This document shows, one piece after another, positions 41,422 to 58,231 of a stretch of DNA of 64,000 bases (the stretch's first letter is position 1; each line of letters starts with the position of its first letter). The position numbers and the translations under genes were made by a program. Origin of the DNA: Candidatus Peregrinibacteria bacterium (GTDB lineage: Bacteria > Patescibacteriota > Gracilibacteria > UBA1369 > LOWO2-01-FULL-3); NCBI GenBank assembly GCA_030688025.1, contig JAUYJL010000009.1:1503-65502 (forward strand), read 5' to 3'. The notes below the pieces were generated by a model that was given only the letters and a program-made list of their open reading frames with translations, was not told the origin of the DNA and made no database searches.

Positions 41422-41475
41422 AGCGGATAAAAAGTGCCAAAATTGAATTAGATTTTTTTCACAAAAGAGAACATC

Positions 41476-41552: not shown

Positions 41553-41645
41553 GAAATTCAAAAAATATTTTCCTATAATTAAAGAGTTTTGATAGGCTCT
41601 TAGAAAATAACAAGCTTTATATAATCCACTAACAACATAAAAAAT

Positions 41646-42041
41646 ATGAAAGTACTTATCATCAAAAACGCACTAATACATTTCCTCCTGATTCCATTCT
41701 ATATTTTCACAGCAAAAGAAGTTGCACTCATGCCAGCAGATAGATGGGATACACTTCTTTTATTTATTGGTCTGATTGTCATAGCGCCAATTACCAGCAA
41801 CTTTATCTACAATTACAAAAATGCTGAAACTCAAAAAGCGATAAACTGGGGGCATGTAACGACATTTTTCTCAATGCTGGTAATTGGCATGCTGTTCATA
41901 GCTTTAGATGTTCTTCTCGTTTTAATGGTCGGAAATGTATTAGTTTTTAGATTAGTGCTTGCTCTTTTCTGGCTAGCCGTAGTTACATTTGATTTTGCAG
42001 ATTTTCTGACAAATACAAAGAGCCTATCAAAACAAAAATAA
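41646..42041 (+). CDS. Cassette 3: small 4-TM membrane protein (131 aa)
   Basis: Four hydrophobic helices; no family recognised. Confidence 0.55.
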   Translation: MKVLIIKNALIHFLLIPFYIFTAKEVALMPADRWDTLLLFIGLIVIAPITSNFIYNYKNAETQKAINWGHVTTFFSMLVIGMLFIALDVLLVLMVGNVLVFRLVLALFWLAVVTFDFADFLTNTKSLSKQK

Positions 42042-42113
42042 GGGAAAATATTTTTTGAACTCGCTCCTTTCAGTCGCGCCCCGCTGCGCTCTCCTCCCTT
42101 TGGTCGTCGGGTC

Positions 42114-42226
42114 GGCTAACACTGCATAACAGGTTCGGCTCTTGCAGAGCCTCACCCAAATTGCGCAGGTGTGAGCCTTCGGCTATTATACACCTGCGCA
42201 ACTTCTGTTATGCAGGAACGTTATAT
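42114..42226 (+). other. attC 3 (R'' GGCTAAC ... R' GTTATAT)
   Basis: L'' CTGCATAACAGG pairs with L' TCTGTTATGCAG, and inner TTGCGCAGGTGT pairs with ACACCTGCGCAA. The R'-side spacer is GAAC. Confidence 0.85.
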
Positions 42227-42267
42227 GAAATGCTTTTGGGGCTAACTTTATTTGATACAATCAAAAC

Positions 42268-43182
42268 ATGAAATTTCAATTAACGGAACCGAACAAACAA
42301 TATTCAAATGCTGAACTCATAGAAGATATTCAAAGAGTTGCAGGTGAGCTCGGCAAAAATTCTGTATCCCAACGAGAATATGATCGATTGGGCAATTTTT
42401 CGTATCAGACATTCAAAAAGAGGTTCGGTTCCTGGAAAAGTGCATTAAAAGAAGCTGGGCTTGAACAAAGCAAGCGTCCTTGGGGTGGTGATTTAACAGA
42501 AACACGCATACCCAAAGAACAGCTTATTGCAGATATGAAAAGAGTTGCAGGCGAACTGGAAAAACAAGCTATCACAATTGCTGATTATGATAAGCATGGA
42601 AAGTTTGGCTCTTCGGCAATCTGTAAAAGATTTGGTGGCTGGAACAAGGCAAAAGAAGCAGCAAATCTGAAAATCGGAAGAGTTTATAATTCAACAGACG
42701 AAGACTATTTTGAAAACATAGCTGATGTTTGGGAACATCTTGGTCGCCAACCACGATATCAAGAAATGACAGCACCACTTTCAAAATTAAATATATCATC
42801 ATACGAGCGAAAATTTGGAACATGGCGAAATGCTCTCGAAAAATTTGTTGAATATATAAACTCTAAAGACGACGCCGAAGAGCCGCAAGAAGCAATCGAG
42901 CCAAAGAAATCAGCAATTGTTCCTAAAAAAGAAGAGAAACCAATAAAAAAGCAGGTGGTTAAAAAAAGAACCAACCGCATTGCAAATCTACGACAGAGAT
43001 TTAGAGTAATGAAAAGAGATGGTTTCAAATGTGTATTGTGTGGAAGTTCGCCAGCAACTCAAGTAGGCTGTGAATTGCATATAGATCACATCATACCTTG
43101 GAGTAAAGGTGGTGAAACTGTAGAGGAAAATTTAAGGACGCTTTGTTCAAGCTGTAATTTAGGAAGATCAAATAAAGAATAA
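42268..43182 (+). CDS. Cassette 4: HNH endonuclease with three N-terminal ~55-aa repeats
   Basis: C-terminal CVLCGS...HIDHIIPWSKGGETVEENLRTLCSSCN is an HNH motif. The N-terminus has three copies of ...(Q/D)YD(R/K)...(F/Y)...KRFGSWK(S/N)AL.EAGL-type repeats (homing-endonuclease-associated repeat). Confidence 0.85.
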   Translation: MKFQLTEPNKQYSNAELIEDIQRVAGELGKNSVSQREYDRLGNFSYQTFKKRFGSWKSALKEAGLEQSKRPWGGDLTETRIPKEQLIADMKRVAGELEKQAITIADYDKHGKFGSSAICKRFGGWNKAKEAANLKIGRVYNSTDEDYFENIADVWEHLGRQPRYQEMTAPLSKLNISSYERKFGTWRNALEKFVEYINSKDDAEEPQEAIEPKKSAIVPKKEEKPIKKQVVKKRTNRIANLRQRFRVMKRDGFKCVLCGSSPATQVGCELHIDHIIPWSKGGETVEENLRTLCSSCNLGRSNKE

Positions 43183-43204
43183 TGAACCGCCCCAAAAGCA
43201 CATC

Positions 43205-43282
43205 ATATAACAAGGCATATACGGCTACGCTACGCTTCGCCCATATTGCTATCGCAACATCGTATATGCCGAAACGTTAGCC
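43205..43282 (+). other. attC 4 (R'' ATATAAC ... R' GTTAGCC)
   Basis: L'' GGCATATACGG pairs with L' CGTATATGCC. The R'-side spacer is GAAAC. Length is 78 bp. Confidence 0.85.
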
Positions 43283-43326
43283 GAAATTGAAAGTAATTTT
43301 TTTATTCCTTTAACCAAAATCAAAAC

Positions 43327-43605
43327 ATGGAAAAGTATTTCATTTTAGCAATAACATTTGCATATAGCATCGGCGGTTTAGTCACATTCGCAGGATTTTT
43401 TCCAACAATGAAGGATTTATGGAAAGGAAAACCAAGTGCAAATGTGCACACCTACATAATTTGGTCGATAACAACCTTCCTTACATCTTTATATGCAATA
43501 TTTGTTGTCAAAGACTTGGTTTTCAGTTTGGTTATCAACCTACAATTAGCGGCATGTTTAATAGTTTTGATTTTGAGATTAAGGCTAAAATTAAAAAGAA
43601 CATAA
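43327..43605 (+). CDS. Cassette 5: small 3-TM membrane protein (92 aa; SemiSWEET/PQ-loop-like topology)
   Basis: Three hydrophobic helices in 92 aa. The family assignment is only a guess from topology. Confidence 0.45.
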   Translation: MEKYFILAITFAYSIGGLVTFAGFFPTMKDLWKGKPSANVHTYIIWSITTFLTSLYAIFVVKDLVFSLVINLQLAACLIVLILRLRLKLKRT

Positions 43606-43665
43606 AAAAATTACTTTCAACTCAAGGGGACGCTGCGCTTTCGCTCCCTTCAGTCGCTCACCCTC

Positions 43666-43783
43666 GGCTAACACTGAATGTGCGGTTCGCGGCTTGCAGC
43701 CGCTCTCCCATATTCACTGGCGGTGAATCGCTTTGCGATATATTATACCGCCAGTGAACATCGCACATTCAGAAACGTTAGGC
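43666..43783 (+). other. attC 5 (R'' GGCTAAC ... R' GTTAGGC)
   Basis: L'' CTGAATGTGCG pairs with L' CGCACATTCAG, and inner TTCACTGGCGGT pairs with ACCGCCAGTGAA. The R'-side spacer is AAAC. Confidence 0.85.
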
Positions 43784-43873
43784 GAAAGAAGAAAAAGCAT
43801 TTGTATTTTACAGTCGACTTGACAAGTCGCCAAAAAAAAGTATAAAGTAGAAAACTATTAACACATACTATTT

Positions 43874-44101
43874 ATGGAAAAAATACAATGTCCTGGTTAT
43901 TACTATAAAAATCGTGAAATGCAGCCAGCCTTTCCTGATGATAAAGTTGATGCATTAGTCCAAGAAGTAGATGGCGAACTCATAGTAGCATGCCCATTTT
44001 TAAGACAACCTACTGAGGCCAGCCCATTGTTATGCGGAAGAATACTTCAGATAACGCATACTGACGAAGTAGCGGCTGGCTGCCCCTATTCAACAAAGTA
44101 A
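43874..44101 (+). CDS. Cassette 6: small Cys-containing hypothetical protein (75 aa)
   Basis: Single ORF in cassette 43778-44239; no family recognised. Confidence 0.45.
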   Translation: MEKIQCPGYYYKNREMQPAFPDDKVDALVQEVDGELIVACPFLRQPTEASPLLCGRILQITHTDEVAAGCPYSTK

Positions 44102-44119
44102 ACCGCTTTTTCTTCCATC

Positions 44120-44245
44120 GCCTAACAATGAATAACTGGTTCACTCCTTCACTCCGTTCAGTCGTTCTCCCAAATTTGGCGGCGGTATGTCGCTCCGCTC
44201 CAAATTTTACCGCCACCACACTTCAGTTATTCATGGACGTTAGCT
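44120..44245 (+). other. attC 6 (R'' GCCTAAC ... R' GTTAGCT)
   Basis: L'' ATGAATAACTGG pairs with L' CAGTTATTCAT, and inner TTTGGCGGCGGT pairs with ACCGCCACCACA (imperfect). The R'-side spacer is GGAC. Confidence 0.85.
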
Positions 44246-44474
44246 GAAATATTCCTTTTCTTTTCTGGGCTATCGCCCAATTGTTTTAAAAAATTTTCAA
44301 ATTTCTTTTTCTTTTTTATAAGGGGAAATATGGAGTTTTCTCCGCTCTGCTACGAAAACACTTGTTTTGTAGAGGGGAATAGCGGTGTTTCCTCCGCTTC
44401 GCTCCAGAAACTCTTTATATATTAAGGGAAAAATACTATACTACCATTAACCCGCCTTTGAACATAAAAACCCT

Positions 44475-46535
44475 ATGGAAATTAATTTCAAAAGTAAATT
44501 ATTTGAACTACTAAAAAGAGACCATCGTCTTTGGAATGAAGAGACCAAGGAATTCAATGAAACTCTTTTAAAAGATTTAGTGGATAAGCTGGATGAAAAT
44601 ATCCTCGAGCTACTTTTTAATAACGCGGAAACAAAAGAACGATTTTTCATAAAAATAAAGGATGTTTATGTATTAAAGCAAAACGAGTTAAAATTTTTCA
44701 TTGATGAAAATAAATTAGACAATTCATTTACCCAGCTTGCCAATAAAATTGGCCTCACCATAGATGACAAAAAAGACGAAAGGGTTGTTTTGAACTGGCC
44801 ATTTAAGGATTGTGTATTAGAGGGCGGCATGACAAAAGAAGACGCTGTTGATGTTTATTATAAATTTGATAAAAAGACCGGCGAATGGAAAGAGGAGGCC
44901 GCAAAGAGAAAAGAAATTTTCTTTAATGAAGTTTTAGCTCGCGATGAAATAGACCGGCTTGAAGATCCAAAAACTCTTTATAAGTGGCGAAGATTTACTG
45001 CTGAAAATTCTGAAAATGGAGAAGAGTTAAAAGAAATAAAGAGAGACGAAAAAGGGATTATAAAGGAAAATTTTGTAATCAAAGGCAATAATCTACTTTC
45101 ATTACATAGCTTAAAATCTCAATTTGAAGGGAAAATAAAACTTATCTACATAGATCCCCCATTTAACACTGGTAAGGATGAATTCAAGTATAATGACAAC
45201 TTTAATCATTCTGCATGGCTAACTTTCATGAAAAACAGGCTAGCGGTAGCAAAAGAATTATTAAGAGATGACGGCGTAATTTTTGTACACATTGGCAATG
45301 AGGAAGCGGCATATATGCAAGTTTTATTAGATGAAATTTTTAACAGGGAAAATTATTTGAATCATATTACAATGAGTACTAATGCGGCATCTGGATTTAA
45401 AGCTACCAGTGCTAAAATATTTTCAACAGCAAACCATATTTTTGTTTATGCCAAAAAAGCAGATAAGGGGTATTTGAATAAGTTATATACAAGAAAAGAA
45501 TATGATGATAGTTACGGATATTATTTACTAAATCCAAGCGAACCATATTCAAGATGGAAGTACAAAAAAATTATTGAAATACTCGCCGAAGAAAATGGAT
45601 TTAAAGATGTGAAATCTTTTCAGAAAAGTTTCGCCAAAGAAATTATACTGGAAAAAATAAAAAAATTTGCACATCTAAATAAGGAAAGAGTATTCCGGAC
45701 TGCAGCATTAGGCGGAGGCGCACTTACGAAAAGAAAAGTCACTGTAGAAAAATCCAAAAAAGAAAAAGGGGTTGTTCTCCAACATCCAAATGAAGACGTG
45801 AAAGGTTTTTATATTTTAAATGGAGAACAGATCGTTTTTTGGTCAAATACCTATAAAGAAATTGATGGAGATATTGTGCCAGCAACATCCCTCACAGATG
45901 TATGGACTGACATCGGTTTTACTGGAATCGCAAATGAGGGTGGTATAACCTTAAAAAATGGCAAAAAACCTGAACCTCTCCTTAAAAGGATAATTGAATT
46001 AGGATCAAGCGAAAATGATATAGTACTTGATTTCTTCGCTGGCAGTGGAACCACTTGCGCGGTGGCCCATAAAATGGGACGACAGTGGATTGCCATCGAA
46101 CAACTTGATTATTCTGATAATAACCCTGAGGAAAGAATGAAAGGGGTCATTGCTGGCGATCCTACTGGAATTTCCAAAACAATAAATTGGAAGGGTGGAG
46201 GTGACTTTATTTACACGCAACTGGCAAAATGGAATGAAGAGGCAAAAGAAAAAATTTCTGAAGCAAAATCTTATGATGAGTTAGTGAAGCTATTTTCATT
46301 GCTCTATGAAAAATATTTCCTAAATTATAATGTGCGAGCAAAAGATTTTAAAGAAAGCATAATAGAAAACAATGAATTCAAAAAACTTTCACTCGAAAGA
46401 CAAAAGGAAATATTTGGAAAAATGCTCGATCTAAACCAGATGTACATAAATTTCAGTGAAAGGAATGATAAAAAATATGAGCTAACATCAAGAGATATAG
46501 AACTCAGTGAAAAATTTTATAATGTGAAAAATTAA
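44475..46535 (+). CDS. mod: Cassette 7: Type III restriction-modification methyltransferase (Mod)
   Basis: LIYIDPPFNTGKDEF (motif IV, DPPF) precedes DFFAGSGTTCAVAHKMGRQWIAIE (motif I), a beta-class order typical of Type III Mod. The res gene follows immediately. Confidence 0.88.
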   Translation: MEINFKSKLFELLKRDHRLWNEETKEFNETLLKDLVDKLDENILELLFNNAETKERFFIKIKDVYVLKQNELKFFIDENKLDNSFTQLANKIGLTIDDKKDERVVLNWPFKDCVLEGGMTKEDAVDVYYKFDKKTGEWKEEAAKRKEIFFNEVLARDEIDRLEDPKTLYKWRRFTAENSENGEELKEIKRDEKGIIKENFVIKGNNLLSLHSLKSQFEGKIKLIYIDPPFNTGKDEFKYNDNFNHSAWLTFMKNRLAVAKELLRDDGVIFVHIGNEEAAYMQVLLDEIFNRENYLNHITMSTNAASGFKATSAKIFSTANHIFVYAKKADKGYLNKLYTRKEYDDSYGYYLLNPSEPYSRWKYKKIIEILAEENGFKDVKSFQKSFAKEIILEKIKKFAHLNKERVFRTAALGGGALTKRKVTVEKSKKEKGVVLQHPNEDVKGFYILNGEQIVFWSNTYKEIDGDIVPATSLTDVWTDIGFTGIANEGGITLKNGKKPEPLLKRIIELGSSENDIVLDFFAGSGTTCAVAHKMGRQWIAIEQLDYSDNNPEERMKGVIAGDPTGISKTINWKGGGDFIYTQLAKWNEEAKEKISEAKSYDELVKLFSLLYEKYFLNYNVRAKDFKESIIENNEFKKLSLERQKEIFGKMLDLNQMYINFSERNDKKYELTSRDIELSEKFYNVKN

Positions 46536-46537
46536 GT

Positions 46538-49321
46538 ATGAATGAGCAAAATTTACAACAGCTCATTGAATCAGAAATAGGTCGAAAGACCATTTCGAAA
46601 ATAGATTTGCCTGAATACATCACTACTAATTTAAGGCACGATTTTTGGTATTGGCAAAAAGAAGCATTGCAATATTTTTTTGCATTTGATGATCCTGTAT
46701 ACGAATTTGAGAAAATAGTGAATGAGCCAACTCACTTGATGTTTAACATGGCGACCGGCACAGGCAAAACCATGCTCATGGGAGCACTGATTTTATATTA
46801 CTACACAAAGGGTTATAAACACTTCATTTTCTTTGTAAACCAAAATAACATTGTAGATAAAACGGAAAATAATTTTATCAATAAAAGCCACACTAAATAT
46901 ATTTTCAGGCAGAGGACAGTAATAGATGACAAGACAATCAATATCCGCAAAGTTGAAACTTTTGACGAAACTGATGACATTCAAATTAAATTTGTTTCAA
47001 TTCATAAGCTTCACAACGATGTCTATTTAGCAAAAGAAAATTCCTTAACACTTCAGGAATTACAGACAAGAGATTTAGTCATGATCGGAGACGAAGCACA
47101 TCATTTTAACGCTTCCACAATAAAGAATGGCCAAACAGAAATTGAATTACCAACAGAACTAAAAGAGAATGCCAGTGATAAAGATATTGAGAAAAGCTGG
47201 GAAGATACGGTTTTAAATAAGATTTTGAGAAAAGGAAAAAGTAAACAAGATGTCGAGAATAAAAATGTTTTACTGGAATTTACTGCAACCATTCCTAAAA
47301 ATACAGATGTTATTGAAAAATACCACACAAAGATTATATATAAATTTGAACTCGTTGATTTTTTAAAGGCGGGATATACAAAGGAAATAAACTTAGTATC
47401 CACATCACTGAAAAAGAAAGAGAAAATTTTATTATCCTTGCTTTTTAATTGGTACCGTCATCAGATTGCACTAAAAAATAACATACCAAATTTTAAGCCA
47501 GTCATTCTTTTCAGAAGTAAACTTATTGAAGAATCAGAAAAAGATTATCAGGAATTTTGTTCAATTATTTCAAAACTAAATCCCTCAGATTTTGATTTCT
47601 TAAAAACTGTTGAGGATAGTATAAAACAAGATCAGGACAGTCTATTTAAAGTTTATGAACAAGGAAAAAGTCGCGTAAAGCAGCTTTTGCAGTTTATTAA
47701 GGACGAAAAAATCAACATTCGCCAGATACTGGATTACTTACAATCAGAATTTTCTGAAAAAAATTGCATTATTACGAACTCAAAAGATAACAATGCAACT
47801 ACTAAAGAAAAAACCTCAGAAGAGCAGGAGCAACTACTAAACAGCTTAGAAGATAAAAATAATCATACCCGTGCAATTTTTACGGTAAAACGACTTACTG
47901 AGGGCTGGGATGTATTAAATCTCTTTGATATAGTTAGACTCTATGAAGGAAGAGATGAGGGGCATAAAAACGGTAAAAGAATTGCCGGTCAAGCAACGAC
48001 TCAAGAAATACAACTAATCGGGCGTGGAGTCCGTTATTTCCCCTTTTCTTACAATGAGCATGAAAAAAACAAAAGAAAATTTGACAATGATTTAGAAAAT
48101 CCCCTCAGAGTTTTGGAAGAGTTTTATTATCACAGTGGAGGCGGTGATTTAGAAAAAGAACGCAGATATATTGATGAATTAAAACGAGAACTTAAAAATA
48201 AAGGATATATTCAAGAGAATAGATCACCAAAGAAATTTAGTTTGAAAGAAGAGTTTAAACAAACAGCTTTTTTTAGAGAGATAAAAGTGTGGAAGAATGA
48301 AAGAATAGAGAATCCGGAAAGGCGCCGACATACACTAACGGAATTGCAAAAGAATTTTATTTTTGAGTACAAAACAAAAGATTTGTCGTTAAGTGAGCAA
48401 CGTGTTGTTTTCGATAATGAGGTCGACGAAATGCTTGCTGAAAGTAAAAGTACAGAGAGAAAAACCTTAAACGTAAAAATTTCAGAGTTTGAAAAACATA
48501 TTGTATGGAAAGCTATAAACAGAAAAGCAAAAAAAGATTTATCGATTTTGCGCTTTGATAATTTGAAAGATGAATTGGATATTAAAAGTATTGATGAAAT
48601 TTTCTCCGATAATCTTCTTGGGGAATTTAAGGTAAATATTATTGTTTCAAAAACTAAAAATGGGTTCTCCGAAATAGATAACAAGGAAAAATTAGAAATA
48701 CTACTTTCCTTTTTTGATGAATTTACCAAGAAGCTAAAAGAAATTGCTAATCCATTCAAAGGAACAATGGATTTTATGCCGTTTTCATTTGGTCAACTTT
48801 TTGGCGAGGAAAAAAAGAAAAATGTGCTTATCGACGAAGAGAGTAAGGCTCTTGAGGTAGAGTTACTCCAACACAAATGGTATGTTTTAGACGGGTTTAA
48901 TGGAACAAGTGAGGAAAGAGATTTAATTGAATTTTTCAAAAACAAATTTGGCAATCTTGAAGAAAAATATGACGAAATTTATCTGCTCAGAAACGAGGAG
49001 GTATATAAACTCTATGATTTTGAACAGGGACGTGGATTTGAGCCAGATTTTTTACTTTTCCTGAAAGGTAAGGAAGGAAATTTATATTTCCAAGTATTTA
49101 TTGAGCCAAAAGGTAGTCAATTTACAGATAAAGAAGGTGGTTTCAAGGAAAGCAAAGAAGGATGGAAGGAAGAATTTTTACAACAAATTACAGATAAATA
49201 TGGCACTGGCAACTTATTAAAAGTAGAAAGTAAAAACTACAAATTGATCGGATTACCTTTATTCAACAAGCAAGAAGAACATTCCTTTGATACAGAATTT
49301 AGTAATCTGCTATTAAAATAG
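46538..49321 (+). CDS. res: Cassette 7: Type III restriction enzyme Res subunit (SF2 helicase-nuclease)
   Basis: Walker A is MATGTGKT and the DEAH box is MIGDEAHHF. Helicase motif VI-like QLIGRGVR is present, as is a C-terminal nuclease-like EPDFLLF...IEPKG (PD-ExK). Confidence 0.88.
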   Translation: MNEQNLQQLIESEIGRKTISKIDLPEYITTNLRHDFWYWQKEALQYFFAFDDPVYEFEKIVNEPTHLMFNMATGTGKTMLMGALILYYYTKGYKHFIFFVNQNNIVDKTENNFINKSHTKYIFRQRTVIDDKTINIRKVETFDETDDIQIKFVSIHKLHNDVYLAKENSLTLQELQTRDLVMIGDEAHHFNASTIKNGQTEIELPTELKENASDKDIEKSWEDTVLNKILRKGKSKQDVENKNVLLEFTATIPKNTDVIEKYHTKIIYKFELVDFLKAGYTKEINLVSTSLKKKEKILLSLLFNWYRHQIALKNNIPNFKPVILFRSKLIEESEKDYQEFCSIISKLNPSDFDFLKTVEDSIKQDQDSLFKVYEQGKSRVKQLLQFIKDEKINIRQILDYLQSEFSEKNCIITNSKDNNATTKEKTSEEQEQLLNSLEDKNNHTRAIFTVKRLTEGWDVLNLFDIVRLYEGRDEGHKNGKRIAGQATTQEIQLIGRGVRYFPFSYNEHEKNKRKFDNDLENPLRVLEEFYYHSGGGDLEKERRYIDELKRELKNKGYIQENRSPKKFSLKEEFKQTAFFREIKVWKNERIENPERRRHTLTELQKNFIFEYKTKDLSLSEQRVVFDNEVDEMLAESKSTERKTLNVKISEFEKHIVWKAINRKAKKDLSILRFDNLKDELDIKSIDEIFSDNLLGEFKVNIIVSKTKNGFSEIDNKEKLEILLSFFDEFTKKLKEIANPFKGTMDFMPFSFGQLFGEEKKKNVLIDEESKALEVELLQHKWYVLDGFNGTSEERDLIEFFKNKFGNLEEKYDEIYLLRNEEVYKLYDFEQGRGFEPDFLLFLKGKEGNLYFQVFIEPKGSQFTDKEGGFKESKEGWKEEFLQQITDKYGTGNLLKVESKNYKLIGLPLFNKQEEHSFDTEFSNLLLK

Positions 49322-49324
49322 GAA

Positions 49325-49379
49325 GTTTTCGGTCGGGGCAATTCACCCCTTTAGTTCCCCTCTTGCCCCTCCCTCAAAC
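49325..49379. repeat. Conserved-loop hairpin H1 (degenerate copy)
   Basis: GTTTTCGGTCGGGGCAA - TTCACCCCTTTAGTTCCCCTC - TTGCCCCTCCCTCAAAC, with 13/17 stem pairs. Confidence 0.6.
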
Positions 49380-49390
49380 AAGAAATAGGT

Positions 49391-49445
49391 GTTTTGGGTG
49401 GCGGGCATTCACCCCTTTAATTCCCCTCTGCCCACCACCCAAAAC
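49391..49445. repeat. Conserved-loop hairpin H2
   Basis: GTTTTGGGTGGCGGGCA - TTCACCCCTTTAATTCCCCTC - TGCCCACCACCCAAAAC, with 16/17 stem pairs. Confidence 0.75.
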
Positions 49446-49509
49446 GGAAAAAGAAATTTGAAAATTTTTAAAACAACCGACTATCGACGGAAAAGAAAAG
49501 GAATACATC

Positions 49510-49636
49510 AGCTAACACTGCGTATGCGGTTACGGCTTGCTCCGTACCTCCGCAAGCCTCCACCCATATTTGCCAGTGGTAAGCACTTCGTGCAATTATA
49601 CCACTGGCAAACATCGCATACGCAGGGACGTTATGT
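49510..49636 (+). other. attC 7 (R'' AGCTAAC ... R' GTTATGT)
   Basis: L'' TGCGTATGCG pairs with L' CGCATACGCA, and inner TTTGCCAGTGGT pairs perfectly with ACCACTGGCAAA. The R'-side spacer is GGGAC. Confidence 0.88.
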
Positions 49637-49666
49637 GAAATAGACTTTACTACCTAAGTGCAAAAT

Positions 49667-50437
49667 ATGACAAACGATCAAACTAAAAAATTCTACGATG
49701 AACTATCGGCTGATTATCATTTGATTTTCGGTAATTGGGATAATGCAATAAAAAGACAATCAAAAATTTTAGATAACATTATCCAAAAATATTCAAAAAA
49801 CGAATCAAAAACGTTATTGGATTGTTCTTGCGGGATAGGAACACAAGCCATTGGATTAGCGAATCTTGGATATAAAGTTCATGCAACAGATTTAAGTCCA
49901 AAAGCAATTGTGAGAGCCAGATTAGAAGCAAACAAAAGGGGTGTTTCAATATCTTTCGATGTTGCCGATTTCAAGAAATTAGAAGATCAAGTTGAAGGAA
50001 CTTTTGATATTGTCATTTCTTGTGATAATTCATTACCACATTTATTAACAGACGAAGAATTGCTTTTGGCTGCAAAAAATATTCTTTCTAAAATGAAATC
50101 CAATAGCTTGTTTATCGCAAGCATCAGAGATTATGACCAACTTTTGGAAGACAAACCAATTAGCACTCAACCAAACGTAAAAGATTTTACAAAGGAAAGA
50201 ACAATTTCTTTTCAAGTGTGGGATTGGGATGAAAATAATGTTTATACTGTTAATCATTTTACTCTGAAAGGAATTAATGAAAAATTTGATACGTTTTTGA
50301 GAACAACTAAATATAGAGCATATAAACGCGATGAAATGTCTAAAATTTTTAAAGAAGCAGGATTTATCGAAATCAAATGGTTAATGCCGAATGAATCAGA
50401 ATACTATCAGCCGATAATAATTGCGTTGAAACCGTAA
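49667..50437 (+). CDS. Cassette 8: class I SAM-dependent methyltransferase (small-molecule type)
   Basis: LLDCSCGIGTQAIGLANLGYKVHATDLS (motif I and the post-I acidic residue). The start is set at ATG 49667 (MTNDQ) rather than GTG 49658. Confidence 0.8.
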   Translation: MTNDQTKKFYDELSADYHLIFGNWDNAIKRQSKILDNIIQKYSKNESKTLLDCSCGIGTQAIGLANLGYKVHATDLSPKAIVRARLEANKRGVSISFDVADFKKLEDQVEGTFDIVISCDNSLPHLLTDEELLLAAKNILSKMKSNSLFIASIRDYDQLLEDKPISTQPNVKDFTKERTISFQVWDWDENNVYTVNHFTLKGINEKFDTFLRTTKYRAYKRDEMSKIFKEAGFIEIKWLMPNESEYYQPIIIALKP

Positions 50438-50449
50438 AGTCTACATCAC

Positions 50450-50591
50450 ATAACACGGTATATGGGGTTCAGAAAATTTCACTCAAAAGATTTAAAAGGA
50501 ATGTGAAATTTTCTTCTCCCAAATTTGCCTCACACTATTGATAAAAATTAAGGAGTTCGGCAAACTTCCCATATACCGAAACGTTGTGCGA
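50450..50591 (+). other. attC 8 (R'' ACATAAC ... R' GTTGTGC)
   Basis: L'' CGGTATATGGG pairs with L' CCCATATACCG. An inner hairpin is GAAAATTTCAC...GTGAAATTTTC. The R'-side spacer is AAAC. Length is 142 bp. Confidence 0.85.
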
Positions 50592-50761
50592 AATATTTTT
50601 CAATATTTTTTCTTTAATAAGGAATTTTTGTTGAAGAATTTAAAAAAGGATGGAATTTTTATTTTAATGAGGGGGATATAATGTATTTTTTGCTCCGTTC
50701 CTCCGCAAAAAATGGATTTAATATTTAATGGAAAATCAGTATAATACCACTGTAAAACACT

Positions 50762-51598
50762 ATGGCTAAAAAAACTCAATCAAAAAGATTAACGAATCAG
50801 CATAAAAAATCTCAAGGTGTAGTCGGTATATTCTGTAACGAAGCAAAGTTACATGATAAAACGGTTTGTAAAATTTCATACCTTGTAATTGAACAACTTA
50901 AAAAGGAACTTCCTCAGTTATCTTTTAGATATAGAACGTGTATAAAAAAGGAAGAAATAAACAAAGCGTTAAAGAAAATTGATCCAGAATTGGGGCAAAC
51001 CCTTTTTGTGCCAAATTCAAGTATTATTCCAGATGGTGGTATAATTGAAGTAAAAGATGATAGTGGTAATTGGAGAGTAGTACTTGTAACAGAAGCTAAA
51101 CATCAAGGAAAAGACATTGAAAATATACAAATAGGAAATCTAGTTGGTAAAAATAACAATCAAGACTTAATGGCTGCTGGCAATGCCATAGAAAGATCGC
51201 ATAAAAACATATCAGAAATTGCCAACTTTATGCTATATGAATCCCATTTCCCCTATATCTTATTCCTGGAAGGATCAAATTTTCTTACTAAAACTATTTC
51301 AATTAAAAGACCTGACGGAAGAGTGGTTACTCTTAATTATAACTCAGGCATGTTAAATAGATTGGATAGATTAACTTGTGCAAATTATGGAATGCCAATT
51401 AACACTAATTTATGTAAAAATAAATTTGTTAAACATAAAGATAAAACGATTATGCTTCAAGCAGCTTCAATTTTTACACAAGGAAATGGAGGAAAGTGGG
51501 ATGTAAAAGAAATGTTTGATATTATGATTGAAATTTCAAAAACCTCTCTTCAAGTATTAGGAAGTGAAATATTTAAACAAATAACCAAGCGAAAATAA
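50762..51598 (+). CDS. Cassette 9: EcoRI-family Type II restriction endonuclease
   Basis: Near-colinear similarity, from memory, to R.EcoRI. This includes PQLSFRYR, IIPDGGIIEVKDD, WRVVLVTEAKHQGKDI (catalytic D...E-A-K), QDLMAAGNAIERSHKNISEIANFM, FLEGSNFLT, YGMPIN and IMLQAASI. Length is 278 aa versus 277 aa for EcoRI. Confidence 0.88.
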   Translation: MAKKTQSKRLTNQHKKSQGVVGIFCNEAKLHDKTVCKISYLVIEQLKKELPQLSFRYRTCIKKEEINKALKKIDPELGQTLFVPNSSIIPDGGIIEVKDDSGNWRVVLVTEAKHQGKDIENIQIGNLVGKNNNQDLMAAGNAIERSHKNISEIANFMLYESHFPYILFLEGSNFLTKTISIKRPDGRVVTLNYNSGMLNRLDRLTCANYGMPINTNLCKNKFVKHKDKTIMLQAASIFTQGNGGKWDVKEMFDIMIEISKTSLQVLGSEIFKQITKRK

Positions 51599-51627
51599 GA
51601 GATTTATTCATTTAACATAATCTGATA

Positions 51628-52683
51628 ATGGCAAGAAATGCAACAAACAAATTATTGCAAAAAGCTAAGGAATCAAAGAGTGATGAGTTTTACACTCAAC
51701 TTTCAGATATAGAAAGTGAATTGCAACACTACAAAGGTCATTTTAAGGACAAAGTGGTTTTTTGTAATTGCGATGACCCTAAAATTAGCAACTTCTTTAA
51801 CTATTTTGCTTCAAACTTCAAAGAGTTGGGATTAAAAAAAATAATAGCTTCTTGTCATAGAAAACAAGAAAGAAATTTATTTAATACTAAAGAATTTGAA
51901 AGTGGTTATTTTTATGAATATTCAGGTGCTCCGGGAGAAAAAATAAACCCAAGTTCAAATGACATGATTCATTTTAAAGGAGATGGCGATTTTCGCAGCA
52001 CTGAAAGCATTGAACTATTAAAACAATCCGATATTATTGTTACTAATCCACCATTTTCGTTATTCAGGGATTTCGTAGGTCAATTGGTAAAATATGATAA
52101 AAAATTTTTGATAATAGGCAACGTTAATGCTATTACCTATAAAGAAATTTTTAAATTAATTAAGAAAAACAAGGCGTGGCTAGGAATAAATCTAGGTAGA
52201 GGTATTTCAGGTTTTATTGTACCAGAACATTACGAGCTTTACGGAACGGAAGCTCGTATCGATAGTCTTGGAAATAGAATAATCTCCCCAAATAACTGTT
52301 TATGGCTAACTAATTTAGACACATCCAAAAGGCACGAAGACATTATTCTTACAAAGAGATATTTTGGAAACGAAATTGATTATCCCCGTTACGATAACTA
52401 TGATGGAATTAATATAGATAAAACAAAAGATATTCCTTTAGATTATGCAGGCGTTATGGGAGTACCAATAACCTTTTTACATAAATACAATTCAGAGCAG
52501 TTTGAAATCATTAAATTTAGAAAAGGAAATGATGAGAAAGATTTGTCAGTAAACGGGAAATGTCCTTATTTTAGAATCTTAATCAGAAATAAACGCATAC
52601 AGAAGACTGGCAGTTGTCATGCAAGAATTGCAACAGATCAATGTCAGGAATATAAAATGATACCAATACAAACTTTATTATGA
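51628..52683 (+). CDS. Cassette 9: EcoRI-family N6-adenine DNA methyltransferase
   Basis: MARNATNKLL..SKSDEFYTQ, CNCDDP, GDGDFRS, IIVTNPPFSLF (motif IV NPPF), YDKKFLIIGNVN, GFIVPEHYELYGTEARID, NNCLWLTNLD, GVMGVPITFLHK and CPYFRILI all follow M.EcoRI as I remember it. There is an extra ~25-aa tail. Confidence 0.88.
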   Translation: MARNATNKLLQKAKESKSDEFYTQLSDIESELQHYKGHFKDKVVFCNCDDPKISNFFNYFASNFKELGLKKIIASCHRKQERNLFNTKEFESGYFYEYSGAPGEKINPSSNDMIHFKGDGDFRSTESIELLKQSDIIVTNPPFSLFRDFVGQLVKYDKKFLIIGNVNAITYKEIFKLIKKNKAWLGINLGRGISGFIVPEHYELYGTEARIDSLGNRIISPNNCLWLTNLDTSKRHEDIILTKRYFGNEIDYPRYDNYDGINIDKTKDIPLDYAGVMGVPITFLHKYNSEQFEIIKFRKGNDEKDLSVNGKCPYFRILIRNKRIQKTGSCHARIATDQCQEYKMIPIQTLL

Positions 52684-54176
52684 TAAAGACAATAACCATC
52701 CAAAATTTTAGAGGTATAAGGGAACTAAAAGATTTTGAACTCAAAAATCTTTCATTGCTTGTTGGTGAAAATGGAACAAGTAAAACCTCTATTTTAGAAG
52801 CGATAAATTTTTGTCTTTCTCCTTATTTTATATCTGGAAGAATTAAACATACAGATTTTTACAAAGGTGAAGATATTGAGATAAAAATTATTTTGGAATT
52901 TGATGAAAATTTCAAAGTCTTTTTGCCTGATGGCTATACCAAACAAGAGGTTGAGTGCAATAAGGTTTGTTTAGAAATAAAAAAAAGAGATAGGGCGACT
53001 CCCAAAAAGGCATTTTCGGACATTGTTGTTGTTTCTCATTATGTTTTACCAAGCAAAGAAAAAGATAATGAAAATGGTTGGGAGATAACACGAGGAACGG
53101 GATCAAAATTTAAATTTGATGAAAGACGGTTGTCTTTTCCTTTGGAGTCAGAAGGGCTACCAAAAAGTTTTTATTTTCCAAAAAACCGAGAAAAACAATT
53201 GCAGAGAGGCTTTAATTCTTCTATTTCTTCAGTTTTTGATGACTTTAATTGGAGATTCAATAAAGAAGTAAGAAAAATTGAAACAGAAGAAAATTTTAGT
53301 GGAGAAAAATTTACATCTCAAAAAAATAATTTTGAATCAAGTATTTTAGAAAAAATTGATGAACAATCACAACAAAAGACATTCCAGACACTAAACGAAA
53401 AACTGGAAAAAGTAGGTTTACCAAAAGCTGATCTTTCACTAATTGATTGCAATGCGCCTTTTGACAATGCTTTTCTTTCTCAAAAATTAGAATGTTTAGA
53501 CTTGCCTATATCTCAACTTGGGTCAGGTGTTGAAATGGTTGTTTCTTTATTGTTTTTAGAAACAATGGCAGAAATTTCAAAAGAAAATATCTTGATTTTA
53601 ATTGATGAACCAGAGCTACACCTACACCCAGATTTACAAAATAATTTTATTGATCACATAGTATCAATTTCTGAAAAAAATCAATTTCTATTTTCTACTC
53701 ACTCCCCACTTTTCGTTAAACAAACATTAAATAATGAAAATGGAAAAATTCAAATTCATTGTTTGGAAAAAGAAAATGGAGAAGTAAAAATTTTAGAATT
53801 AGAAAAAAGAGTTTTGCCGTATGTTTCAGCTAACGAAGTAAATTTTATTGCTTTTGGGTTAGCAACAGAAGAATATCACAATGAACTTTATAATGAGATT
53901 GAAATAAATTTTTGGAATGATCCAGATAATGATTTTAAAACATTGAAACAAAACGGAAGTTATGACAATAATGACTGTCGTCAAATTATTTTTGATAACG
54001 AATTTTTCTCAAAATTTAAACAAGAACAAATAGATAGTCCTTTTAGGACTACTCAAAATAAAGTAACAATCCACACCTACATTAGAAATAGAATTCATCA
54101 CTCTAAAGAAAATGGAGAAAGTCCAACAACACAAGAATTAAAACAATCCATAGAGAAAATGCGAGGATTTCTTTAA
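52680..54176 (+). CDS. Cassette 9: ABC/OLD-like (AAA_15/21-type) ATPase with a non-TOPRIM C-terminal domain
   Basis: Walker A GENGTSKTS, Walker B ILILIDEPELHLHP and H-loop FSTHSP. The ~115-aa C-terminus has no DxD/TOPRIM motif but contains RNRIHH (an Rx4H pattern). The start codon overlaps the methyltransferase stop (ATGA). Confidence 0.75.
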   Translation: MIKTITIQNFRGIRELKDFELKNLSLLVGENGTSKTSILEAINFCLSPYFISGRIKHTDFYKGEDIEIKIILEFDENFKVFLPDGYTKQEVECNKVCLEIKKRDRATPKKAFSDIVVVSHYVLPSKEKDNENGWEITRGTGSKFKFDERRLSFPLESEGLPKSFYFPKNREKQLQRGFNSSISSVFDDFNWRFNKEVRKIETEENFSGEKFTSQKNNFESSILEKIDEQSQQKTFQTLNEKLEKVGLPKADLSLIDCNAPFDNAFLSQKLECLDLPISQLGSGVEMVVSLLFLETMAEISKENILILIDEPELHLHPDLQNNFIDHIVSISEKNQFLFSTHSPLFVKQTLNNENGKIQIHCLEKENGEVKILELEKRVLPYVSANEVNFIAFGLATEEYHNELYNEIEINFWNDPDNDFKTLKQNGSYDNNDCRQIIFDNEFFSKFKQEQIDSPFRTTQNKVTIHTYIRNRIHHSKENGESPTTQELKQSIEKMRGFL

Positions 54177-54182
54177 TAAGGT

Positions 54183-54231
54183 GTTTTTCTTTTTCCAATT
54201 CACCCCTAACCCCTCTTGGAAAAAGAAAAAC
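54183..54231. repeat. Conserved-loop hairpin H3
   Basis: GTTTTTCTTTTTCCAA - TTCACCCCTAACCCCTC - TTGGAAAAAGAAAAAC, a perfect 16-bp stem. Confidence 0.75.
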
Positions 54232-54308
54232 GAAAAATAAAAATTCCAAATAGAAATAAAATTCTTCAACAAAAGAATAAGGAATGAAAAAATATTGAAA
54301 AATACATC

Positions 54309-54435
54309 GCACAACAACTCATATCTGGCTCAAGAAATTGACACATTAATATTTCAAAGGAAAGTCAATTTCTTTCGACCCAAATTTTTGCTTCACTACG
54401 TTTTGCAAAAACTTCAGATATGAGTAACGTTAGCC
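54309..54435 (+). other. attC 9 (R'' GCACAAC ... R' GTTAGCC)
   Basis: L'' CTCATATCTGG pairs with L' CAGATATGAG. An inner hairpin is GAAATTGAC...GTCAATTTC. The R'-side spacer is TAAC. Confidence 0.85.
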
Positions 54436-54662
54436 GAAATACATTTTTACTATTCCCTTTTTGTCGCTCCGCTTTTCGGACTTTTAATAAGGAGGGGCGA
54501 ATTGATTCTTTATTTTTAGAGGGGGGGGCTGTCTGCCTTTGGCAGCCAGTAAGGTATTTTCTTGCTCCCTTCGGTCGCTACGAAAAATTTAGAATTATTT
54601 TAGAAATATTTAATAATTGCATGATATAATCACTACGAAATTTTAAATAAATCAGAATAAAT

Positions 54663-56255
54663 ATGAACACAACAGAACAAAACGAATTATTAAGTATTCA
54701 AGAAGCAAGCACATGGGCTAGCTCATTTTTGAAGCGCGTCGTTACAGAAAGCAACATTTCATATCTAATTCAGTATGGCAGAGTTAGAAAAATTGGAGAA
54801 AATGGCACAACTCAAATAATAAAAGCAGATTTACTTAGATATTACGAAAAAAGTCGCCCTAGTCGTGAAATATCATGGAAAAAAACGCTTGGAGATGACT
54901 TAAACTGGTCTTTATCTTTTGAACAATATAGAGAATCTGAAACCACAAAGCATGTTCATCGGTTACATCCATACAAAGGAAAATACATTCCTCAACTTGT
55001 TGAGTATTTTTTAGACGATCACACGGATAATTTTAAGAAACAAACTTATTTTAAAAAGGGTGACATCATTCTTGATCCATTTTGTGGAAGTGGAACAACG
55101 CTTGTGCAAGCAAATGAATTGGGTATGCACTCAATCGGGATAGATATTTCCGCCTTCAATTCCTTAATTTCAAACATTAAAATTGGAAAACATGACTTTG
55201 AAGAACTCACCCTGGTAATTAAGCAAATTACTAACAACTTGGAAAAAATTTTAAAGGACGCACACGCAATAGATTTTGAATCAGAACTATTAAAAGAGCT
55301 AAATCAATTCAATTCAAAAAATTTCCCCTCTCCGGAATTTAAGTACAAAATACGCCAAGGACAGGTTGATGAAAGAAAATTTGGAAGCGAAAAAGAAAAA
55401 GAATTTCTGAAAATTTACGATACATTGGTCAAAAAGTATGGAATTAAATTAAAACAACAAAAAAATGAAACATTCTTAGATAAATGGTATCTACAAGCAA
55501 TCAGAGATGAAATAAATTTCATGTTTGAGCAAATTAAGCAAATCAAAAATCCAGACATCAAAAAAGTAATAAGTGTTATTTTAAGCCGTACTATCAGATC
55601 TTGCCGTGCAACAACCCATTCAGATTTAGCAACGCTCAAGGAGCCACAAATAACAACTTATTATTGCAAAAAGCACGGGAAAATGTGCAAACCTCTTTTT
55701 TCAATTTTGAGCTGGTGGAAGCGATATGCTCAAGACACAATGTATAGGTTTAAACAATTCGAAAAATTACGAACTGATACAAAACAAATTTGCTTAACAG
55801 GTGATTCAAGAGAAATAGATATTTTTGGAGAACTAGATAACCGTTATCCCGATTTTGCTAAAATCGTAAAAACTCAAAAGATTAAAGGTATTTTTTCTTC
55901 ACCTCCTTATGTTGGATTGATTGATTATCACGAACAACATGCCTACGCCTATGATCTCTTCGGATTTAAGCGCAAAGACGAATCTGAAATAGGCCCGCTT
56001 TTTCGAGGACAAGGATTAGAAGCAAGAAAAAGCTATATTGAAGGGATTTCATCTGTACTGCTAAATTGCAAAAAATTTCTAGCAGATGATTTCTCCATAT
56101 TTTTAGTAGCCAATGATAAATGGGGTATGTATCCTGAAATTGCTAAAAAAGCAGGACTAAAAATTGTTGAAGAATTTAAAAGACCCGTTTTAAACCGTAC
56201 CGAAAAAGACAAAGGAGCGTATTCAGAGATAATTTTTCACTTAAAAAATAATTAA
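54663..56255 (+). CDS. Cassette 10: DNA methyltransferase (N4-C/N6-A amino-methyltransferase, SPPY motif, alpha-like order)
   Basis: ILDPFCGSGTTLVQANELGMHSIGIDIS (motif I) lies about 270 aa before IFSSPPYVGLIDY (motif IV). The N-terminal segment LSIQEASTWAS... looks like a small HTH. Confidence 0.82.
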   Translation: MNTTEQNELLSIQEASTWASSFLKRVVTESNISYLIQYGRVRKIGENGTTQIIKADLLRYYEKSRPSREISWKKTLGDDLNWSLSFEQYRESETTKHVHRLHPYKGKYIPQLVEYFLDDHTDNFKKQTYFKKGDIILDPFCGSGTTLVQANELGMHSIGIDISAFNSLISNIKIGKHDFEELTLVIKQITNNLEKILKDAHAIDFESELLKELNQFNSKNFPSPEFKYKIRQGQVDERKFGSEKEKEFLKIYDTLVKKYGIKLKQQKNETFLDKWYLQAIRDEINFMFEQIKQIKNPDIKKVISVILSRTIRSCRATTHSDLATLKEPQITTYYCKKHGKMCKPLFSILSWWKRYAQDTMYRFKQFEKLRTDTKQICLTGDSREIDIFGELDNRYPDFAKIVKTQKIKGIFSSPPYVGLIDYHEQHAYAYDLFGFKRKDESEIGPLFRGQGLEARKSYIEGISSVLLNCKKFLADDFSIFLVANDKWGMYPEIAKKAGLKIVEEFKRPVLNRTEKDKGAYSEIIFHLKNN

Positions 56256-56256
56256 T

Positions 56257-57054
56257 ATGGCACTATCAAAAGATTTACAACAGAAGGTTTATGAATTTCT
56301 AAAGGGGAAAATCCTTAAAAAAATTGATGAATACAACTTGAGCGATGAAGACTCATCAAAACCTTTTCAATATGCTCTTTTTACAAAAAAGGGTTACTTG
56401 GCTAAAGGATTTATTCATGGATGTGAAACAGCACTTGGAAATTGGCACGAAACCATAGCGAAAATTATTGCCACTGAAAATTTTGCAACTGCAAATAAAT
56501 TACAAGGACAAAACAAATTAAAAGGTAAAATCACAAGAGAGGCACAAAGAACATCTGAAAATATTTTAAGTGATCTTGATAGCGTTAAGAGAGAACCAAA
56601 TCACAAGTCAGAGTCAGAAGAAATTTTTAATGCTAGCCAAAACCTCGAACAAACAGAGGACAGAATACAAACTGTTGATCTCTACCTAGAAACAAAAGAC
56701 GGTGAAGAAATTTATTTTGAAATAAAGGGACCTAAGCCAAATAAAAACGAAATGAGAGCAGCAAAAAGAGATTTGCTAGAAATATATGCAATGAGATCAG
56801 CGGAAGGCAAGAAAGTAAAAATTTATTTAGGCATGTACTACAACCCATATTATCCCGAAGAGTACCAAAGATGGACATGTATAAAATTCTTTGATAAAGG
56901 TAATGACTTTCTTATTGGCAAAGACTTTTGGGACTTTTTAGGCGGAAACGGAGCTTATGAGGAATTAATTGATATTTATGAAAAAGTCGGAGAAAAAATA
57001 AGACCAGTGCTAGATCAAAAGTTCAAGGACATTGCAAAAAATCAAGAAGAATAA
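56257..57054 (+). CDS. Cassette 10: PD-(D/E)xK Type II restriction endonuclease (family uncertain, possibly TdeIII-like)
   Basis: VDLYLETKDGEEIYFEIKGPKPN fits D-Xn-E-X-K. The gene starts 2 nt after the methyltransferase stop. The family name is only a recollection. Confidence 0.6.
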   Translation: MALSKDLQQKVYEFLKGKILKKIDEYNLSDEDSSKPFQYALFTKKGYLAKGFIHGCETALGNWHETIAKIIATENFATANKLQGQNKLKGKITREAQRTSENILSDLDSVKREPNHKSESEEIFNASQNLEQTEDRIQTVDLYLETKDGEEIYFEIKGPKPNKNEMRAAKRDLLEIYAMRSAEGKKVKIYLGMYYNPYYPEEYQRWTCIKFFDKGNDFLIGKDFWDFLGGNGAYEELIDIYEKVGEKIRPVLDQKFKDIAKNQEE

Positions 57055-57057
57055 AGT

Positions 57058-57106
57058 GTTTTGGCTCGGGCAATTCACCCCCGGCCCCTCTTGCCCTCGC
57101 CAAAAC
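57058..57106. repeat. Conserved-loop hairpin H4
   Basis: GTTTTGGCTCGGGCAA - TTCACCCCCGGCCCCTC - TTGCCCTCGCCAAAAC, with 14/16 stem pairs. Confidence 0.7.
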
Positions 57107-57238
57107 AGAATCAATTCGCCCCTTATAAATAAGTGAAAAGCGGTCGTGACATCGGGAATAGTAAAAATGTACTTCGTTCGGTCGCTACGCTCCCTCCGAC
57201 CACGCTGCGCTCTCGCTCCACTGCGTTACGCTCGGGTC

Positions 57239-57371
57239 GGCTAACACAGCATAACAGGTTCGGGGCTCGGCTCGCCCCTCACCCAAATTGCTTGTTCGCT
57301 TAGGCGGTGCACTCCGTGCTATTATACCGCCACGCTCACTTCGCAACTTCTGTTATGCTGGAACGTTAGCT
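57239..57371 (+). other. attC 10 (R'' GGCTAAC ... R' GTTAGCT)
   Basis: L'' CAGCATAACAGG pairs with L' TCTGTTATGCTG. The R'-side spacer is GAAC. It is closely related to attC 3. Confidence 0.85.
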
Positions 57372-58225: not shown

Positions 58226-58231
58226 GTGGTG

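Follow-up and report, generated by a model that had tools for sequence, protein, structure and literature searches.

Recombinant DNA work was founded on EcoRI as a tool, yet little is known about the natural history of this enzyme. A pair of genes closely resembling those of EcoRI lies in a 64,000-nucleotide (nt) stretch of DNA (here called the window) from a Candidatus Peregrinibacteria bacterium (assembly GCA_030688025.1, contig JAUYJL010000009.1, positions 1,503 to 65,502 of the forward strand), which raises the question of how such a system came to sit in the genome of a member of the candidate phyla radiation (CPR). A preliminary description, made from the letters alone, had taken the pair for a close homologue of the EcoRI restriction-modification (R-M) system, carried as an integron-type cassette and recently transferred between an enterobacterial plasmid and a CPR-like chromosome. 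We arrive at an answer that keeps the cassette and replaces the source. With a probability that we put at roughly 85%, a complete EcoRI-type R-M system, together with an ATPase gene, forms an integron-like cassette in a CPR array and was acquired from a pool of CPR bacteria. The coordinates of all features are collected in Table 1.

A complete EcoRI-type restriction-modification system

The product of the nuclease gene (R) matched the EcoRI chains 1ckq/1eri of the Protein Data Bank (PDB) end to end (phmmer, E = 6.5e-131), and it covered profile positions 1-257 of 257 of PF02963 with 486.8 bits, against a cut-off of 22. In an alignment with plasmid copies (A1), R shared 74% identity with the protein of E. 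coli, for which we used the plasmid protein annotated "type-2 restriction enzyme EcoRI," 76% with that of Klebsiella, and 65% with that of Leuconostoc. The PD...(D/E)XK catalytic residues of EcoRI are D91, E111, and K113, and the enzyme contacts GAATTC through the extended chain M137-A142 together with E144, R145, R200, and R203. All of these residues were invariant across A1, and residues 134-157 were identical to those of EcoRI. Because the catalytic and recognition residues are unchanged, we predict GAATTC specificity, and cleavage of unmethylated GAATTC by R is a sensible prediction.

The methylase gene (M) encodes a protein with a full-length match to PF13651 (433.7 bits; cut-off, 26.4) and with identities of 72%, 71%, and 66% to the E. 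coli, Klebsiella, and Leuconostoc copies, respectively (alignment A2). Its NPPF catalytic motif sits in the block VTNPPFSLF, which is invariant in A2, and a search of the PDB by sequence returned no relative of M with a solved structure. M is predicted to protect the 534 GAATTC sites of the host by N6-adenine methylation.

These results uphold the earlier view that both proteins are nearly colinear with R.EcoRI and M.EcoRI. The blocks quoted for R (QDLMAAGNAIERSHKNISEIANFM and WRVVLVTEAKHQGKDI) have the same letters in the E. coli protein, as do those quoted for M (MARNATNKLL, VTNPPFSLF, GFIVPEHYELYGTEARID, and GVMGVPITFLHK). Low identity to EcoRI or an altered recognition region, which had been named as grounds for abandoning the claim, was looked for, and neither was found at 74% and 72% identity with residues 134-157 intact. 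The statement that the lengths are almost identical holds for R (278 against 277 amino acids [aa]) and fails for M (351 against 326 aa), whose C-terminal extension reaches into the ATG of the third gene (ATGA overlap, 52680-52683). The 351-aa form of M is also encoded in a Kaiserbacteria contig (L006).

Compared with the EcoRI system of E. coli plasmids, the window pair has the same two protein families, the same R-then-M order, a spacer of the same ~30 nt, identical catalytic and recognition residues, and a likewise low GC content. It differs in being chromosomal and in lying in an attC-bounded cassette rather than on a small mobilizable plasmid, in an M with 25 extra aa, whose gene runs into a third one (that of the ATPase), in sharing only 71% nt identity, and in belonging to a separate CPR clade.

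The host genome has not been purged of the recognition site, as had been noted from the sites at 1295-1300 and 18625-18630, both of which we confirmed. GAATTC occurs 534 times in the 1.18-Mb genome and 26 times in the window. The genome-wide count compares with 393 sites expected from base composition and 647 expected from a maximal-order Markov model (ratio, 0.83; rank 14 of 64 hexamer palindromes). The density of 453 per Mb resembles the 396 to 476 per Mb of five congeners without the system. Since the congeners have the same density, there is no depletion specific to the R-M system, and the mild deficit is a trait of the lineage, not a response to the EcoRI-type genes. Avoidance of GAATTC as a sign of long residence was ruled out on the same figures. 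If R is active, the host is predicted to depend on M, which fits recent acquisition.

The same counts bear on the possibility that the genes are present without working as a GAATTC R-M system, the nuclease being silent, inactive, or shifted in specificity and the host being independent of M. A density equal to that of system-free congeners leaves no footprint of selection, and one related copy (L065) appears decayed, with a shortened R open reading frame (ORF) and a split ATPase gene. However, both ORFs in the window are full length, their catalytic and base-contacting residues are those of EcoRI, and all three genes are 90-95% conserved in the copy from Kaiserbacteria. Recent acquisition with efficient methylation would, moreover, equally leave the density of GAATTC as it was. 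We consider a nonworking system improbable.

The system lies in an array of cassettes bounded by attC sites

R, M, and the ATPase gene occupy the ninth of ten cassettes. The ten attC sites, which were found by reading intergenic DNA and then located by script, are 77-142 nt long, begin with an R'' box (NNNYAAC), and end with an R' box (ACGTTRNNN-GAAAT). All genes between 39847 and 57054 lie on the + strand, divergent from the recombinase gene. At every junction (10 of 10), the 7 nt of R'' exactly complement the R' box of the preceding site and not that of their own site. This complementarity extends over all nine attC-attC junctions, the attI-attC1 junction, and 40 of 40 variable positions. 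The first R'' (GGCTAAC, 40384) exactly complements the attI box GTTAGCC, and R'' of cassette 9 (GCACAAC) complements the GTTGTGC at that cassette's own 5' end. Such chained R''/R' complementarity is the footprint expected from insertion of each cassette by crossover at G|TT.

The sites also have the folding properties of attC. Bottom-strand folds were more stable than those of shuffled sequences, with z scores of -4.7 to -7.6 for the long sites and of about -2.5 for the two short ones, and compensatory changes were present in 17 of 27 consensus pairs across the ten sites (L-stem covariation). In the energy model, on which this description depends, a one-sided bulge of 3 nt separates the R stem from the L stem, and the L stem is fully paired. 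R1, a covariance model made from these ten sites, found five more attC sites elsewhere in the genome, on contigs C17 (61-149 and 3418-3554), C18 (38713-38849 and 39333-39461), and C21 (3068-3207), and clustered sites in 29 of 41 related genomes. The two sites on C17 lie near both ends of this 3.7-kb contig, which suggests that the assembly broke in cassette repeats.

Homology to other genomes is confined to the cassette. With window positions 50300-54700 as the blastn query against related loci, the alignment to the Kaiserbacteria contig L006 ran from one cassette junction to the other (window 50582-54440; 3862 nt, 92.6% nt identity). Homology began at 50583 in a Patescibacteria contig (L008) and at 50589 in a Parcubacteria contig (L007). 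The proteins of L006 are 90% (R), 95% (M), and 92% (ATPase) identical to those of the window, the attC after its cassette is nearly identical to attC9, and none of the window's neighbouring cassettes was present in L006. An R'' box GCACAAC also follows the cassette in L008 and L065. Cassette copies with ~85-93% nt identity were found in all in Kaiserbacteria, Parcubacteria-group, and Patescibacteria-group metagenome-assembled genomes (MAGs) and in a 1-Mb MAG labelled Gammaproteobacteria. Among relatives of the host, the R gene was absent from all 40 genomes searched (5 from its genus, another 19 from its family, and 16 from its order), so that it occurs in 1 of 41 when the host is counted.

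The alanyl-tRNA synthetases (AlaRS) of the genomes that share the cassette are only ~50% identical to one another, and we therefore read the shared cassette as transfer, not descent, with the cassette as its unit. AlaRS also places the host, whose genome is 1.18 Mb: the enzyme is of the short form and has 45-60% identity to its counterparts in named CPR genomes, compared to 36-42% with long-form proteins elsewhere. (MutS was dropped as a placement marker, because it is absent from most named CPR genomes.) Both the CPR-like chromosome and the integron-type cassette of the preliminary description are thus borne out, the latter strongly, by the flanking attC sites, the ten G|TT junctions, and the cassette-confined homology.

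Two of the MAGs with related genes (L065 and L011) are labelled "uncultured Gammaproteobacteria." They are ~1.0-Mb genomes with short-form AlaRS and EcoRI genes of the CPR clade, L065 also carries CPR-type attC arrays, and both are probably mislabelled CPR genomes. The three-gene copy in L065 (8001-11533) looks decayed: its longest R ORF is 143 aa, and its ATPase ORFs are 223 and 218 aa.

The leader of cassette 9 is 170 nt long, and the leader with its TATAAT is conserved in L006 and L007. Cassette 9 has a GC content of 0.295, compared to 0.373 for the window outside the array. Promoters of M inside R, as in E. coli, were considered and dropped, because promoter-like matches did not exceed those in shuffled sequences.

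Integron cassettes are known to carry R-M systems, such as XbaI in Xanthomonas, and defence functions are enriched among cassettes (PMC10661359). Cassette 9 resembles the XbaI-type cassettes in that a whole R-M system lies in one cassette with a 3' attC, within a defence-rich chromosomal array. It differs from them in its CPR host, its size, its three genes, its promoter-like leader, a recombinase without the IntI domain, and its close copies in other CPR genomes.

Table 1. Features of the cassette array and of the EcoRI-type cassette (window positions)
Feature	Position	Strand	Description	Basis
Tyrosine recombinase	38825..39649	-	273 aa, Xer-like, divergent from cassettes	PF00589, 143 bits
attI crossover box GTTAGCC	39790..39796	+	Array start, adjoins recombinase gene	
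Cassette array	39790..57371	+	Ten cassettes bounded by attC sites	attC sites and junctions
attC sites 1-5	40384-40500, 41476-41552, 42114-42226, 43205-43282, 43666-43783	+		Script
attC sites 6-10	44120-44245, 49510-49636, 50448-50589, 54309-54435, 57239-57371	+		Script
attC of cassette 8	50448..50589	+	R' GTTGTGC at 50583-50589 holds the 5' junction of cassette 9	z = -4.7; R1, 96.6 bits
Cassette 9	50584..54429	+	3846 bp: leader, R, M, ATPase, hairpin, own attC	G|TT in two R' boxes
Putative promoter TTAATA-16-TATAAT	50718..50745	+	Ends 16 nt before R start	10/12 consensus
R gene	50762..51598	+	EcoRI-family type IIP restriction endonuclease, 278 aa	Profile and alignment
M gene	51628..52683	+	EcoRI-family N6-adenine DNA methyltransferase, 351 aa, 25-aa C-terminal extension	Profile and alignment
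ATPase gene	52680..54176	+	OLD/PtuA/GajA-like ABC ATPase (AAA_15), 498 aa	Start overlaps M stop codon
Hairpin with C-rich loop	54180..54232	+	Directly after ATPase stop codon	Repeat also after cassettes 7 and 10
attC of cassette 9	54309..54435	+	R'' GCACAAC, R' GTTAGCC	Bottom-strand z = -5.4; R1, 72 bits

An integron-like platform with a short recombinase

A divergent recombinase gene and an attI box adjoin the array, as expected of an integron platform, and the recombinase carries the catalytic R-H-R-Y residues. It scored 188 bits with the integron integrase model TIGR02249, under the cut-off of 265, and 213 against 220 with the XerA-type model. When aligned with IntI1 and a Pseudoalteromonas IntI (A4), it showed a gap of ~45 aa that includes ALERKYP. 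An additional domain around patch III marks IntI (Messier & Roy 2001, as cited in PMC9668308), and archaeal integrons have been reported with an IntI bearing this domain (PMC9668308).

The array shares with canonical integrons (IntI1, VchIntIA, and the sedentary chromosomal ones) a divergent tyrosine recombinase, an attI, and co-oriented cassettes, and its attC sites share the R''-L''...L'-R' symmetry, the GTT crossover, and the folded bottom strands. It departs from them in the short, low-scoring recombinase, in an asymmetric spacer (3 nt against 0-1 nt), and in an L stem that has no obvious extrahelical bases in the modelled fold. As the recombinase lacks the IntI-specific domain, we do not file the platform with the IntI integrons; by its sequence, it is integron-like and not a canonical integron. 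Tyrosine recombinase genes also lie directly upstream of, and divergent from, an EcoRI-type R gene in the Parcubacteria contig L007 (6798-7667, - strand; 289 aa) and in a Proteiniphilum contig (L039; 269-1111, - strand; 280 aa), and no IntI insertion is visible in either protein.

Several observations weigh against our conclusion that the system is an integron-like cassette. The recombinase is without the additional domain of IntI (A4), and we infer its action on the attC sites from adjacency. The cassettes of sedentary integrons, which have been described as biobanks for defence, tend to be small and to lack promoters (bioRxiv 10.1101/2024.07.02.601686), and cassette 9, which is 3.85 kb long and has three genes behind a promoter-like leader of its own, is not typical of integron cassettes; the number of promoter-like matches in it is 26, against 20.1 +/- 4.6 in shuffled sequences. 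Near five close CPR copies of the system (L004, L005, L009, L010, and L049), no convincing attC of the R1 family was found, and none was found at the Microcystis copies or at any of the three plasmid copies. The EcoRI family also lives outside cassettes, and since several copies have no detectable attC, we make no claim that all copies are cassettes.

One could instead regard the region as an ordinary defence island, in which the flanking palindromes are terminators or repeats like the repetitive extragenic palindromic (REP) elements and the recombinase is an unrelated housekeeping Xer protein. The missing IntI domain and a best score of XerA type would fit this, as would the wealth of defence genes and the presence of a second hairpin family. 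REP elements and terminators, however, do not predict chained R''/R' complementarity at 10 of 10 junctions, which is specific to G|TT cassette recombination. Homology between genomes stops at the junctions, and the cassettes are all co-oriented and divergent from the recombinase. The genome has only two tyrosine recombinases, and the other one, on contig C6, can act as the housekeeping Xer. We therefore judge an ordinary defence island very unlikely.

The EcoRI family and the place of the E. coli system

The EcoRI family proved very widespread and unusually conserved. At least 309 loci, counting one genome per species, encode a relative of R. The best 80 of these are 80-92% identical to the window R across CPR groups, Bacteroidota, Microcystis and other Cyanobacteria, DPANN-labelled contigs (Woesearchaeota), and others, and M follows R in nearly all of them. 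R homologues are also encoded on 11 predicted viral contigs of IMG/VR (L138-L148; 57-86% identity), five of which have an adjacent M at 75-81% identity.

To the plasmids of E. coli, Klebsiella, and Raoultella, the window R and M genes are 70-72% identical at the nt level (~71%). In a tree of concatenated R and M (65 rows, quick search, Shimodaira-Hasegawa-like approximate likelihood ratio test [SH-aLRT] support), the window grouped with L006 (support, 98) inside a clade of ten (support, 99) made up of CPR-labelled genomes and two 1-Mb MAGs labelled Gammaproteobacteria. The E. coli EcoRI branched outside all 63 environmental copies. The GC content of the R-M genes had a median of 0.306 at 62 loci, although the flanks of these loci vary between 0.30 and 0.61, and it was 0.325 in the 0.50-GC E. 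coli plasmid, a pattern that points to E. coli as recipient, not donor. R1, run with filters off, detected no attC remnant at E <= 5 beside the plasmid copies of E. coli, Klebsiella, and Leuconostoc.

Recent direct transfer between an enterobacterial plasmid of the pMB1/ColE1 type and the window genome, which the amino acid identities of 74% and 72%, the long identical blocks, and the shared gene order and spacing might suggest, is hardly credible, because DNA identity is only ~71%, the best 80 representative genomes are closer to the window R, E. coli EcoRI branches outside the environmental copies, the plasmid copies adjoin no attC remnant, and the R-M genes keep a GC content of ~0.31 everywhere. 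The earlier proposal of such a transfer is accordingly not supported; the recent exchange is within CPR lineages.

To survey attC packaging across the family, we used a simple attC detector that recovers 10 of 10 window sites and gives ~3-4 matches per 38 kb of non-array sequence. Correctly oriented attC-like sites lay upstream of R in 15 of 72 loci, compared to 5 in a reversed control, and downstream of M in 9 of 60 loci, compared to 2 in the control. At four loci, the R-M genes lie between attC sites on both sides with perfectly complementary R' and R'' boxes: Patiriisocius marinus (L042), Flavobacterium covae (L064), and a Saprospiraceae MAG and a Bacteroidota MAG (L068 and L080). Attachment site-bounded packaging of the EcoRI family was found in all at no fewer than eight loci from two phyla.

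The multisite arrays of Bacteroidota, such as L064 2016-9980 and L042 3914-9988, have attC-like sites of ~130 nt and carry the EcoRI-type R-M genes as a two-gene cassette. Within the fetched flanks of the arrays at L064, L042, L068, and L080, no recombinase was seen. An incomplete search of the literature found no paper that links EcoRI-family systems to attC cassettes and none on CPR integrons, which is a weak sign of novelty.

The third gene encodes an ATPase found beside R-M systems

The ATPase gene is translationally coupled to M through the ATGA overlap. The type of the protein was shown by a profile match to 6p74 and by Foldseek matches to 6p74, 8eea, and 8x5i; its AlphaFold2 (AF2) model has a mean predicted local distance difference test (pLDDT) score of 71.9. 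The C-terminal domain, which is helical and 120 aa long, was modelled alone with a pLDDT of 83.9, and E398, E402-L-Y404, and R469-N-x-x-H-H474 are invariant in 30 homologues down to 37% identity. Foldseek against the PDB gave no significant fold match for this domain (best E = 2; Csx1-Crn2 at E = 6-9), and Pfam gave no match even at E <= 10. Assignment to HEPN or another fold was dropped, since a good AF2 model had no significant PDB match.

The ATPase has the ABC-ATPase fold in common with OLD, PtuA of Septu, and GajA of Gabija (6p74, 8ee4, and 8x5i). It differs from them in having no HNH partner and no Toprim domain, for which no Pfam match was found, and it is thus not placed among the OLD nucleases. 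Like prrC, the genes of its homologues usually adjoin R-M genes, and its C-terminal RNxIHH resembles the HEPN motif Rx4-6H; a further difference is that its profile match is to AAA_15 and not to AAA_13.

Among 50 metagenome loci with an ATPase homologue, EcoRI genes lay upstream only in the Kaiserbacteria population. The upstream neighbour was another R-M component in 8 of 10 sampled loci, the R-M neighbours including HsdM, HsdS, M-S fusions, N6_N4 methylases, R.HinP1I, and RhuM. Given these neighbours, we call the ATPase an R-M-associated module; a guard role like that of PrrC or RloC is offered as a hypothesis only. In the Patescibacteria contig L008 (KA31), an unrelated 338-aa ORF (2365-3381) replaces the ATPase in the EcoRI cassette, and the accessory gene of this cassette is therefore exchangeable.

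Other cassettes and repeats of the array

Defence cargo is also present in the cassettes around cassette 9: cassette 7 (44475-49321) carries a type III R-M system (Mod and Res), cassette 8 (49658-50437) an S-adenosylmethionine methyltransferase with a weak mad2-like match, and cassette 10 (54663-57054) an N6_N4 methylase and a TdeIII-family nuclease. The product of cassette 4 (42268-43182) is an HNH endonuclease in which the "homing endonuclease associated repeat" (PF18780) occurs three times. After the last attC (57372-58231), there are two small ORFs on the + strand, one at ~57534-57854, and no closing attC, followed by purH on the - strand; this stretch may be a degenerate end of the array.

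The long attC sites (e.g., 40425-40475, 49560-49612, and 42160-42205) share the internal boxes CCCA(T/A)ATT and ATTATACC. The top strands of several read TTGCCA or TTGCGC, 17 or 19 nt, and TATTAT, and are possible outward promoters for the next cassette. The hairpins of a second repeat family follow the pattern GTGTTTTGG...CAATTCACCCC...CCAAAACA and have a loop rich in C (49322-49450, 54180-54232, and 57056-57110). These hairpins directly follow the stop codon of the last gene in cassettes 7 (two copies), 9, and 10, and as they have no T-run, they are not classic terminators.

Implications for the spread of EcoRI-type systems

If the system moves as an integron-like cassette, as we conclude, its likely way in was site-specific recombination, with the Xer-like tyrosine recombinase of the array as the probable enzyme and the G|TT of the R' boxes as the crossover point, and its source was a pool shared among CPR bacteria and not enterobacterial plasmids. 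In the host, R would cut unmethylated GAATTC and M would methylate the 534 genomic sites. EcoRI is a classic post-segregational killer. By analogy, loss of the cassette would be harmful, and the cassette could help to keep arrays stable in the manner of an addiction module, a part played in Vibrio by toxin-antitoxin cassettes.

A broader scenario, which we put forward as tentative and think rather doubtful, is that the EcoRI family spread across phyla largely as an integron-type cassette, in CPR through arrays served by short Xer-like recombinases without the IntI domain and in Bacteroidota through arrays with ~130-nt attC sites. The E. coli system would then be an outlying offshoot, and one CPR lineage would have recruited the R-M-associated ATPase. 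The conserved RNxIHH domain of this ATPase might then serve, like PrrC, as a fallback against inhibition of the R-M system.

Taken alone, the R-M system adds one more member to a family that is well known, and its type of vehicle is known as well; what makes the case interesting is how cleanly the transfer follows the cassette, the occurrence of the family in cassettes of more than one phylum, and the unusual nature of the platform. Few cases show so clearly that CPR lineages share a single cassette, here at 93% nt identity, and this one adds an example of defence cargo to an integron-like platform without the IntI hallmark. The EcoRI family keeps its own low GC content in every host, with the E. 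coli enzyme as an outlier of the family, and the cassette provides a tangible means by which a type II R-M system can spread horizontally.

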